Made by a program: the position numbers and the translations under genes
In this document: positions 57,307-60,128 of the stretch, piece after piece
Position numbering within the stretch: position 1 is the first letter of the stretch
Layout: each line of letters begins with the position of its first letter
Notes under the pieces: model-generated
What the model was told of the DNA's origin: nothing
Seen by the model: the letters and a program-made list of their open reading frames with translations, nothing else
Database searches by the model: none
Source: an uncultured Candidatus Rokubacteria bacterium
GTDB taxonomy: Bacteria; Methylomirabilota; Methylomirabilia; Rokubacteriales; CSP1-6
DNA length: 64,000 nucleotides
Assembly: GCA_963771355.1 (NCBI GenBank)
Contig: CAVYTA010000006.1
Span: 1,344,001-1,408,000, forward strand
Reading direction: 5' to 3'

Positions 57307-57507
57307 TCAGTCCGCCGCGCTGGGCACGATGATCCAGAGGATGATGTAGACGAGAATCCCGGGGAACGCCACCGACAGGATGGAGCCGACGACGTAGAGC
57401 ACCCGCACCAGGGTAGGATCCCAGCCCAGCCATTCCGCGATGCCGCCGCAGACGCCGGCAACCATGCGGTGCCGCCGCGAGCGCCGGAGCGGCCGGCGCA
57501 GATCCAT
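57307..57507 (-). CDS. pspC: PspC-domain protein
   Basis: LRRSRRHRMVAGVCGGIAEWLGWDPTLVR...YIILWIIVP. Confidence 0.9.
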   Translation of the reverse strand: MDLRRPLRRSRRHRMVAGVCGGIAEWLGWDPTLVRVLYVVGSILSVAFPGILVYIILWIIVPSAAD

Positions 57508-58496
57508 CACGCGGCCCCCCGGAAATTCCGCGCGAGGAACTCCACCGCGCGTCGCTCCGCCCAGGAGGGCCCGGCGCCGCCCTCGAGGAAGCCCGCATGG
57601 CCGCCCTCGGCGGGAAAGGCCGCCTCGAGCCAGGCTGAGCGCTCCACCTCGGCCCGCGGCAGGGTCTCCGGCGGGACGAAGGGGTCGTTCACGGCGTTGA
57701 TGAGGAGCGTGGGCCGGCGGATCTCGGGCAGATACGGTCCGCTGCTCGACCGGCTCCAGTAGTCCTCCTCGTCGGCGAAGCCGAAGATCGGCGCCGTCAC
57801 CAGCCGGTCGTAGAGCCTGAACGTCCCCGCGCGCAGGGCGGCCGGCACGTCCACCCGCTCCGTGTAGAGCGCCGACTTCGCCCGGATCTTGGCCTTCATG
57901 GTGCGGAGGAAGTGGGCGGTGTAGAGGAGGCGGTTCATCCCGCGGTCGAGCGCCGCCGCGCAGGCGGCGAGGTCGAAGGGCACCGAGATCGCGACCGCGG
58001 CCGCGATCTCGTCCGGCGCGCCGTCCCCCTGCTCCCCGAGCCACTTCAGCGCGACGTTGCCGCCGAGGGAGACGCCGACCAGGCCCAGACGCGCGCCGGG
58101 CGCCGCGGCGATGAGCCGCCGCACCGTCCAGTCCAGATCGGAGGTCTCCCCGGAGTGGTAGAGGCGTCCCAGCCGATTCAGCTCCCCGCTGCAGGAGCGG
58201 AAGTGCAGCACGACGCCGCGCCAGCCCGAGGCCTCCACGAGCCCCATGAGCCCCAGGGCATAGTGCGAGTCCGACGAGCCTTCCAGCCCATGGAGGACGA
58301 CCACGCAGGGCGCGCGGGCATCATCGCGACCGGCCGCCAGCCAGTCGAGGTCGAGGAAGTCGCCATCCGGCGTCTCCCAGCGCTCGCGTCGGAGCGCGGG
58401 CCGCCGCGGGCGCCTCCGGAGCGGTCCCCAGAGGCTTTGCAGGTGCCGCCCCCGCAGCCACCACGGCGGCCGGTAGTCAGCGGGGGCGGCAGTCAT
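57507..58496 (-). CDS. YheT-family alpha/beta hydrolase
   Basis: HLQSL, DGDFLDLDW, HGLEGSS, FRSCSG, YHSG, GVSLGG, DPF, GGHAGF. Confidence 0.9.
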   Translation of the reverse strand: MTAAPADYRPPWWLRGRHLQSLWGPLRRRPRRPALRRERWETPDGDFLDLDWLAAGRDDARAPCVVVLHGLEGSSDSHYALGLMGLVEASGWRGVVLHFRSCSGELNRLGRLYHSGETSDLDWTVRRLIAAAPGARLGLVGVSLGGNVALKWLGEQGDGAPDEIAAAVAISVPFDLAACAAALDRGMNRLLYTAHFLRTMKAKIRAKSALYTERVDVPAALRAGTFRLYDRLVTAPIFGFADEEDYWSRSSSGPYLPEIRRPTLLINAVNDPFVPPETLPRAEVERSAWLEAAFPAEGGHAGFLEGGAGPSWAERRAVEFLARNFRGAA

Positions 58497-58514: not shown

Positions 58515-59051
58515 CTACTCCTGGCCCTCGAGGATGAGCTTCACCACCTGCGGCGCGATCTCGCGCGCGCGCTGATCCAGCTGGGCCTCGGAGAGGTTGG
58601 CGATGGGATGCGGCATGGCGAGGAACTTGTACGCGGGCAGCCCCCACGACTGGGCCATCGCCCGCCCGGTGCCCTCGAAGACGTCGGTGACGATCGACGC
58701 GGCGGGAACGCCGTTCTTCTCCATCAGGATTCCGTCGAGCACACTGCCCGACGAGCAGGACCCTCAGTCGCCGATGCCGGCGACGACGACGTCGACGGTC
58801 CGCTTGGCCTCCTCCAGGATCTCCGCGTGCGCGGGGACGCTGGCATTGTGCTTCCGCCACATGCGGCACTCCGCCGCGCCGTAGTCGTTGATGAGGATCT
58901 CGCCGATCCGGTGCAGCAGCCGATCGGAGTTGAACTTGGTGTTCTCCACCAGGCCCACGCGCTTGCCCTTCAGCGAGTCCGGGCGCGCCACGAAGGTCAA
59001 CGGCTGGCGGCGCGGCTCCACGGTGGGGTCGAGGATTTCGATGGGTGCCAT
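58515..59051 (-). CDS. UGSC-motif selenoprotein (in-frame TGA at 58764-58766 read as Sec), 178 aa
   Basis: MAPIEILDP...VDVVVAGIGD-(TGA)-GSCSSGSVLDGILMEKNGVP...LEGQE reads as one frame across the TGA, giving a UxxC motif, with a SECIS-like hairpin downstream. Confidence 0.88.
58727..58763 (-). promoter_or_regulatory. Putative bacterial SECIS element
   Basis: 11 nt after the UGA comes the stem GUCGGGCA-GUG-UGCUCGAC with G in the apical loop. A possible lower stem is GGGUCC/GGAAUCC. Confidence 0.65.
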
Positions 59052-60100
59052 CAGGCCCTCCTCTCTCGGATGAGCTTCGTCACCGACTGGGAGGAGCGGC
59101 GGCCCCCCGCCCAGCCTGGGATGTAACACGAGAACGCGCCCGCGCGACCGCCCGCGGCGAGCACGAGCACGTCCTCCGGTCCCGCCACCAATGACTTGTA
59201 GGTGGTCTCGTCCTGCGGGGTCACTCCCCCGGGCAGGCGCTCCGTACGCTTGAAGTGGGCGAGGCTGACCTGGGTATTGTCGAAGACGTACTTCCGGATG
59301 TCGGCCTTGGTCCAGCCCCCCGCCGCGATGGTCCGCATGTGCTCGCCGGCGAGCACCACCACGTACTGGGGCTGACCCCCGGTGCTGTTGTGGTGACGCA
59401 TGTCGTCGCAGAGCGTCTTGAGGATCCCCTCCGGGGTGCTGGAGAGCTGGTTGTAGAACTGCCGCGGCCCTTCCGCCGACATCACCGTCACCGTGCTGTC
59501 GCCGGCGGCGAAGCCCCGCTCGACGTGCAGCGGTGTCCAGGGGCTCTCCGCCTCGTTCTCCGCGATCACGTAGGTGTACTTCCCGGGATGGCCGATGGTG
59601 CCACGGTCGAGCAGGCCGGGCAGCGTCCCGATCACGTTTCGCATGACCAGGCGCAAGGCGCGCCCCACGGTGGCGTTGGAGCGCCAGCCCGGCCCGAAGA
59701 GATTGTCCTCGCAGTTGAAGCCGAAGCGAGTGGCGATGGGCCCGTTGACGATCATGAGGACGGCGGCGCCGCCGGTGGAGGTGGCGGGTCCGTGATAGCC
59801 CCAGGCCGGCTCCGCGATGCCCTCCACTGCCGCCACCACGATGGGCATGTACTCGGGCCGGCAGCCCGCCATCACCGCGTTGATGGCGACCTTCTCCGCC
59901 GTCACCGCGACCTGGCGATTGGTGATGTAGGCGATCTGATGGTCCGGCTCGAGCCCGGCGGCCTCGAGCATGGCCCGCACCGCCGGCTCGGTGGGCGGGA
60001 CCACGGGGAGTCCGTCCGTCCAGCCCCGGTCGTAGCACAGCTCCATGGCCAGCCCGATGTCCGCGACGACGTGACGCTTGGAGGCGAGTGCCGTTGTCAT
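59051..60100 (-). CDS. Conserved uncharacterised protein, partner of the UGSC selenoprotein
   Basis: GWTDGLPVVPPT, INAVMAGC.PEY, NGP, GPG.RSNATVGRA, GHPGKY...AENE..SPW.PLH; TGATG coupling to the selenoprotein gene. Confidence 0.85.
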   Translation of the reverse strand: MTTALASKRHVVADIGLAMELCYDRGWTDGLPVVPPTEPAVRAMLEAAGLEPDHQIAYITNRQVAVTAEKVAINAVMAGCRPEYMPIVVAAVEGIAEPAWGYHGPATSTGGAAVLMIVNGPIATRFGFNCEDNLFGPGWRSNATVGRALRLVMRNVIGTLPGLLDRGTIGHPGKYTYVIAENEAESPWTPLHVERGFAAGDSTVTVMSAEGPRQFYNQLSSTPEGILKTLCDDMRHHNSTGGQPQYVVVLAGEHMRTIAAGGWTKADIRKYVFDNTQVSLAHFKRTERLPGGVTPQDETTYKSLVAGPEDVLVLAAGGRAGAFSCYIPGWAGGRRSSQSVTKLIRERRA

Positions 60101-60128
60101 GCCGGGGATTATACCCGAAGATGCGAGC

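Follow-up and report, generated by a model that had tools for sequence, protein, structure and literature searches.

The window, that is, the whole stretch of 64,000 nucleotides analysed here, encodes on its minus strand a protein of the UGSC family in which an in-frame TGA is, judging from sequence comparisons, almost certainly recoded as selenocysteine (Sec). The gene as such is unremarkable and belongs to a family already catalogued. The C-terminal half of its product probably shares ancestry with the Sec domain of the glycine reductase GrdB. Together with the product of the gene immediately upstream, here called the partner, it might form a predicted two-subunit catabolic reductase and act as its GrdB/PrdB-like nucleophile subunit, a reading put forward tentatively (Table 1).

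Table 1. Features of the UGSC locus, in window coordinates
Feature	Position	Strand	Basis
UGSC-family selenoprotein gene, 178 aa, U96-G-S-C99	58515..59051	-	Matches to NF041046 and PF24696
In-frame TGA, inferred Sec codon, residue 96	58764..58766	-	Context AGIGD*GSCSSG
Bacterial SECIS upper hairpin	58732..58754	-	Core nt 15-22 with 26-33 = 58752-58734; loop GUG 58744-58742
Partner gene, 349 aa, no Pfam/NCBIfam family; Unknown_1	59051..60100	-	Adjacency and motif of Fig. S1A
AGGAGG resembling a Shine-Dalgarno site, 5 nt ahead of the UGSC start and within the last codons of the partner	59057..59062	-	Sequence reading
TATAAT, 7 nt before the partner ATG	60108..60113	-	Same TATAAT-N7-ATG in orthologous loci
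YheT-like alpha/beta hydrolase, 18 nt downstream, lineage-specific third gene	57507..58496	-	NF008218, 244 bits (below the cut-off of 267)

Read from 59051 down to 58515, the gene is a single frame of 178 codons and a TAG stop with one internal TGA, as the original prediction had proposed where the open-reading-frame lister gives two pieces (one ending at 58764, the other starting at a GTG at 58742). With the TGA read as Sec, the translation matches NF041046 of NCBIfam over its full length (141.2 bits, cut-off 125) and PF24696 of Pfam (195.9 bits against 25 bits), and its proposed membership of the UGSC family is confirmed by both curated models. Among the best 120 of 175 database homologues, 109 span site 96; a cysteine stands opposite the TGA in 106 of these, in line with the expectation, and C99 is a cysteine in all 109. 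Seven of the 11 predictions that do not span the site stop exactly before the TGA. The selenoprotein had been described as hidden and as liable to be split by annotation pipelines. The lister did split it and those seven of 120 predictions do end right before the TGA, but NCBI keeps a curated model. The word "hidden" overstated the novelty, the family having been published since 2007.

Every one of the 30 orthologous and 45 paralogous loci has the TGA (75/75, these loci having been chosen among TGA-bearing matches). Its recurrence in the 29 orthologous loci besides this one is a pattern that a sequencing error would not produce. A UGSC match occurs in 60 of 61 genomes of the bacterial family, two of them unpublished; every one of the matches listed carries a TGA, and 202 further matches lie beyond the list. 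Judged by the names of their sources, close homologues and an ESM Atlas cluster suggest Rokubacteria/Methylomirabilota. Natural Cys forms are found in cultured strains of Microbacterium, Citricoccus and Saccharopolyspora.

The hairpin downstream of the TGA lies where it had been predicted. Counted from the U of the UGA, it follows an 11-nt spacer and occupies nt 15-33; the loop, GUG, falls at nt 23-25 and lies 19 nt away from the UGA; the pairing can be extended to nt 13-35, and the fold energy is -14.6 to -14.7 kcal/mol. The bacterial SECIS model of PMC13188914 describes a loop of 3-9 nt, a stem of 4-16 bp, a G in the first two loop positions, a spacing of 16-37 nt and a minimum free energy of at most -7.5. 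Here the loop has 3 nt with G first, the stem 8-10 bp, the spacing is 19 and the energy -14.6 kcal/mol. The minimal 4-bp rule is lax and accepts 3607 of 5000 random TGAs of the genome, whereas a 10-bp stem is found at 38 of 5000. In E. coli fdhF the element likewise has an 11-nt spacer, an upper stem-loop from nt 15 and G23 and U24 in the loop, but it contains a bulged U17 (PMC8659212), whereas the stem here is an unbroken 8-10 bp with a 3-nt loop.

The claim of a SECIS-like hairpin stands on comparison and not on energy. Folding energy alone lies within the range of shuffled sequences (z -1.3 and -1.7 for the two shortest stretches, with 20 and 12 of 200 shuffles equally good, and z -0.8 for the two longer stretches). 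The hairpin is taken to be more than chance because of the comparative evidence, which shows it conserved solely in TGA-bearing loci. The 30 orthologous loci all carry the same bases at nt 13-35, and their proteins are 71-83% identical to the one studied here. A covariation set was assembled from 57 TGA loci, 54 of them distinct (12 of the 30 orthologues, 5 paralogues and 40 picked down the ranking). In this set 94.4% of the cells pair, and four of the eight pairs change on both sides. None of 500 shuffles reaches the pairing or the covariation score, a test inflated by relatedness and by taking the structure from the present sequence; slid registers pair at 19-53%. In the same register, 62% of the cells pair in 80 Cys-codon loci, collected by a scan pattern that selects Cys forms, and the full hairpin is present in one of the 80.

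The hairpin also leaves its mark on the protein. Of 56 Sec loci, 50 encode Ser103 by AGT, a codon that makes up 2.2% of the Ser codons genome-wide, and across Sec loci residues 102 and 105 occur as G/L (18), S/L (15), W/H (14), C/H (8) and A/A (1). This amino-acid covariation is driven by one SECIS base pair, and to protein coevolution methods it would mimic a residue contact.

The genome, which is 99.8% complete, was found to contain the Sec machinery for which the prediction had called: selA (TIGR00474, 555 bits), selB (TIGR00475, 367 bits) and selD (TIGR00476, 266 bits, contig C4), each over its cut-off, and a tRNA-SeC(TCA) at C7:111447-111544, to which selA and selB adjoin. PF24696 finds six UGSC copies, and in each of them a single TGA falls at the corresponding place in the motif. 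The machinery, the Cys pairing and the TGA-linked hairpin support the reading of a 178-residue selenoprotein. It is highly improbable that the TGA instead ends the protein, reflects a lesion in a pseudogene or stems from a sequencing error: that the hairpin energy is not significant by itself would suit this explanation, but it has to contend with the recurrence of the TGA at all 75 family loci (picked from TGA-bearing matches), with the conservation of the halves on either side, with the complete machinery and with a hairpin that goes with the TGA forms.

The original prediction caught the UGSC gene and its hairpin and missed the adjoining partner gene. The partner stop overlaps the UGSC start by one base (TGATG), and the arrangement of the Shine-Dalgarno-like site suggests that UGSC would be translationally coupled to the partner. 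Counting a partner as adjacent when it lies at most 400 bp away or in the retrieved flank, it adjoins UGSC in 151 of 154 other loci (28/29 orthologous, 45/45 paralogous and 78/80 Cys-codon). A fused UGSC piece is present in 33 of 150 partner representatives, in either order, and in the present genome six of eight partner genes are paired with a UGSC gene or domain, with one natural fusion. The two partner-family genes without an adjacent UGSC gene are at C6:2676288-2677301 and C5:215690-216631. The adjacency, the natural fusions in both orders and the overlapping stop and start indicate a two-part module. The two proteins would form a physical complex. The partner family is large, with 5165 representatives at 50% identity clustering, and none of 89 members examined gave a convincing Pfam match. 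A UGSC/Unknown_1 fusion was reported by Zhang and Gladyshev in 2008 (PMC2398784), and the partner motif is present in the Fig. S1A alignment of its supplement; on the strength of this motif and of its position, the upstream gene is identified as Unknown_1.

The TATAAT before the partner is likely a leaderless operon promoter. The TATAAT-N7-ATG arrangement occurs in 8 of 29 orthologous loci, this one counted, and most of the others show a Shine-Dalgarno sequence instead. A scan that needs a -35 element found no sigma-70 site before the operon and no terminator. On the plus strand, a divergent NADH dehydrogenase-like gene (likely start 60129) has its start codon 29 bp from that of the partner, with a single TATAAT between them, which could possibly be a bidirectional leaderless promoter for both genes; such a neighbour was seen in 4 of 29 other loci, their flanks being short. 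In 26 of 30 orthologous loci, this one counted, the flank includes the YheT-like hydrolase found downstream here; the 45 most frequent ORF clusters around the Cys loci held no recognisable copy of it. Its conservation may be plain synteny.

The protein belongs with the "UGSC-containing protein" of Zhang and Gladyshev (PMC1976440, PMC2398784). It shares with that family the D-U-G-S-C motif, the in-frame TGA with a bacterial SECIS element and the link to Unknown_1. Where the fusion was reported in 2008, separate coupled genes and six paralogues in one genome are seen here. The excerpts of bioRxiv 10.1101/2022.07.06.499078 that were searched contain no mention of UGSC. The present analysis would add to the family a flavodoxin/Rossmann-like model and a profile match to the Sec domain of GrdB, the one predicted and the other derived from alignments.

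The AlphaFold2 model of UGSC, built with Cys for Sec, has a pLDDT of 91 and shows a five-stranded parallel alpha/beta domain with a flavodoxin/Rossmann-like strand-helix order. In it, strand 3 ends with U96, and C99 falls within the opening turn of the helix that follows. The structural matches listed include receiver, flavodoxin, SDR and periplasmic-binding domains, none of which stands out; the best has Z 10.4 and rmsd 3.3 over 125 aligned residues. No thioredoxin-fold protein appears among the Foldseek matches listed or the top 50 VIA matches. The predicted model does not fit the Trx-like fold assumed in print: PMC2398784 considers UGSC likely a Trx-fold protein with a redox role, and PMC13188914 assumes a Trx-like fold. 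Sequence searches of solved structures with UGSC, the partner and GrdB returned nothing credible, and the ESM Atlas gave no usable named match for a Cys homologue of UGSC.

The partner is modelled with a pLDDT of 95. Its VIA search gave no chain with Z of at least 8 among 48,161, which shows neither a new fold nor a difference. Its best Foldseek matches are class I fumarate hydratases (E 5e-4, TM 0.30), and the same chain is also VIA rank three (Z 5.3, rmsd 5.4, 185 aligned), Z below 8 being common background; this is the sole whole-chain hint for the fold. The partner family has two conserved Cys columns, of which one is kept in the partner here, and Cys80 is near-invariant (0.96 of 69 rows). 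D29, R140, N142, R147 and E181 of this partner are further conserved residues. An automatic ESM Atlas name for the partner, "Thioredoxin family protein", was rejected for lack of Pfam support, other clusters being unnamed or auto-named.

The printed default, in which UGSC is a real selenoprotein acting as a general thioredoxin-like thiol/disulfide oxidoreductase or antioxidant that reduces the partner Cys or other proteins, appears unlikely, given the parallel alpha/beta sandwich of the model and the lack of any thioredoxin-fold protein among the matches listed. The one-to-one tie to a single partner family in catabolic clusters would also be odd for a housekeeping redoxin. In its favour are the UxxC at a helix N-terminus in the model, the near-invariant Cys80 and the many Sec candidates of the genome that look peroxiredoxin- or AhpD-like. 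The preference of PMC2398784 for a Trx fold and a redox role points the same way.

An origin shared with GrdB is considered probable. The resemblance was tested against ten GrdB-family and 15 PrdB-like sequences from related genomes. In HHalign, a 155-sequence UGSC profile aligned with the Sec region of GrdB at 94.9% (E 4e-8, 93 columns) with U and C in register, and broad UGSC profiles reached 95-96% against the GrdB Sec domain. The combined GrdB and PrdB-like profile gave 92.8% unmasked and 80% with Cys masked, against 0.3% for the reversed control and 2.5% for the best of 30 column shuffles. Among control families from the genome (98 built), the best of 56 reached 54%. When the 12 SECIS-coded residues were masked on both sides, two broad profiles kept 88-89%. 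Narrow profiles performed less well: the orthologue-only profile gave 18% and the Cys loci 57% (3% and 41% when masked), a Cys-only protein alignment gave 23% with the motif out of register, and PrdB-like profiles alone gave 5-37%. The alignment is limited to residues 76-174. PF07355 matched neither the present protein nor 105 Cys homologues; because this model ends at the Sec, it barely tests the Sec region.

UGSC resembles GrdB (of glycine, sarcosine and betaine reductase) and PrdB (of D-proline reductase) in several further respects. Its Sec stands at a strand end in U-G-x-C and is followed, in the same order, by E-x-x-G-x-P, a hydrophobic strand and H-P-(L/I)-(G/A). It shows paralogue expansion and a larger second subunit, which for UGSC is predicted. 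It differs in having about 95 residues before the Sec versus 150 or 346, in its many Cys forms in aerobic genera, in a partner unrelated to GrdE and in a match that is weak with narrow profiles. The idea that the partner is a proprotein of the GrdE/PrdA type was rejected (0.1% against 16 GrdE-family sequences), and against full GrdB it also gave 0.1%. With a partner unlike GrdE or GrdB, the activating chemistry of GrdB/PrdB is left without an identified counterpart. PF07355, the GrdB/PrdB family, matches 39 of the 61 family genomes, several with multiple full GrdB and GrdE copies, whereas neither GrdB (PF07355) nor GrdA (PF04723) was found in the present genome, where controls were also without a match. 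Among the excerpts returned by a literature search, no published link between UGSC and GrdB was found.

For GrdB and PrdB, PMC10298544 and PMC11229817 describe a selenolate that attacks a substrate carbon; the selenoether so formed is converted by a thiol into a selenenyl-sulfide. According to a proposal in PMC10838667, fluoroacetate loses its fluorine through C-F cleavage by a GrdB-like pair that works without pyruvoyl. For the nucleophile-subunit reading of UGSC, a comparable sequence of events can be outlined. SelB would bind G23/U24 of the loop and bring Sec-tRNA to the UGA. The partner would bind and polarise a small substrate, and the selenolate of U96 would attack a carbon bearing a leaving group (C-N, C-S, C-O or C-halogen) to form a selenoether. 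C99 would then resolve it to a selenenyl-sulfide, to be recycled by a cellular thiol reductant; the six paralogous pairs of the genome might handle different substrates. A U96/C99 selenoether cycle with the partner as the substrate-binding subunit is given slightly less than an even chance. Observations against the reductase reading include two of the eight partner paralogues in the genome that are without an adjacent UGSC gene, and the common occurrence of Cys forms of UGSC, though PrdB with Cys for Sec was inactive in vitro (PMC11229817).

The neighbourhoods of the Cys forms suggest a catabolic setting. They were surveyed through ORF clusters of the 80 Cys loci and 81 hand-picked ORFs from 14 of the 80, many of these loci being close kin. 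Recurrent families comprise acyl-CoA ligases and dehydrogenases, CoA transferases, amidohydrolase-2, Zn-alcohol dehydrogenases, luciferase-like enzymes and aconitase X, together with TctC, NMT1 and family-5 binding proteins and IclR/GntR regulators; IlvD/Edd dehydratases also recur near these loci. Within the neighbour families scanned (81 hand-picked ORFs, 14 of 80 loci), no gene for a dedicated reductant turned up repeatedly. In the present genome, two UGSC paralogues abut TRAP transporters.

Other functions can be drawn from the same data. The two proteins could constitute a metallo-hydro-lyase, in which a metal or an Fe-S cluster would be held between the subunits by U96, C99 and the partner Cys, on the pattern of two-subunit class I fumarate hydratases. 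The partner's best Foldseek matches and its VIA rank three, the three thiol/selenol ligands at hand and the recurrence of aconitase X and IlvD/Edd dehydratases nearby are consistent with this idea, but the scores lie in the common-background range (Z < 8), there is no sequence match to solved structures, and the GrdB-like sequence pattern would be left unexplained; it is considered decidedly unlikely. Quite unlikely as well is a selenoprotein and partner with another chemistry, such as sulfur/selenium transfer or hydrolysis via a Sec/Cys acyl intermediate. CoA ligases, CoA transferases and the YheT-like hydrolase are frequent neighbours, and the partner fold is without a clear match; against this, no test in this analysis was positive for it, and the invariance of C99 (109/109 among the best 120 of 175 homologues) is more in keeping with redox cycling than with a mere transfer of acyl groups.

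If the reductase reading is extended further, UGSC and Unknown_1 could represent an unrecognised and very widespread third branch of glycine/proline-reductase chemistry that dispenses with the pyruvoyl cofactor, which is possible but doubtful. In it, a stripped-down GrdB-type Sec/Cys domain would be joined to a substrate-binding subunit without a clear structural match. Were this third branch real, soil bacteria with several paralogous copies would cleave carbon-heteroatom bonds of imported small molecules. The GrdB link and a fold other than thioredoxin would replace the label "unknown redox protein" by an enzyme hypothesis open to testing, and the natural Cys versions in cultured strains allow tests that do not require Sec expression.

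Several side observations concern the genome as a whole. The SelD at C4:225335 is a Cys form, apparently joined to a domain upstream within a single long frame, which resembles the Ndh-SelD fusions described in PMC2398784. A genome-wide search gave 128 TGA read-through candidates with a coding signature and a hairpin, indicating a large selenoproteome. About 30 of the 128 look by eye like known families, and presumably include three of the FdhA type (one a contig-end duplicate), several peroxiredoxin/TlpA-like proteins, AhpD-like CxxU and DsbA-like proteins, MoeB and rhodanese. At C7:248670 (plus strand), an in-frame TGA with a 7-bp hairpin marks a possible less-known selenoprotein, in a gene that we take to encode a CoA-transferase subunit. 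Another TGA, at C6:2158953 (minus strand), is flanked on either side by strongly coding sequence, with a short hairpin at a distance of 20 nt; the family was not recognised, and the site may be either a gene junction or a selenoprotein. Of the sequencing runs that hold part of the stretch (22 of 24 listed), at least six are RNA runs (share 0.30-0.57, soil or rhizosphere), and no inference is drawn from them. Identical sequence is present at the contig ends C4:311654 and C7:2605 and at C5:2455 and C7:812109, which suggests overlapping contigs in the assembly.
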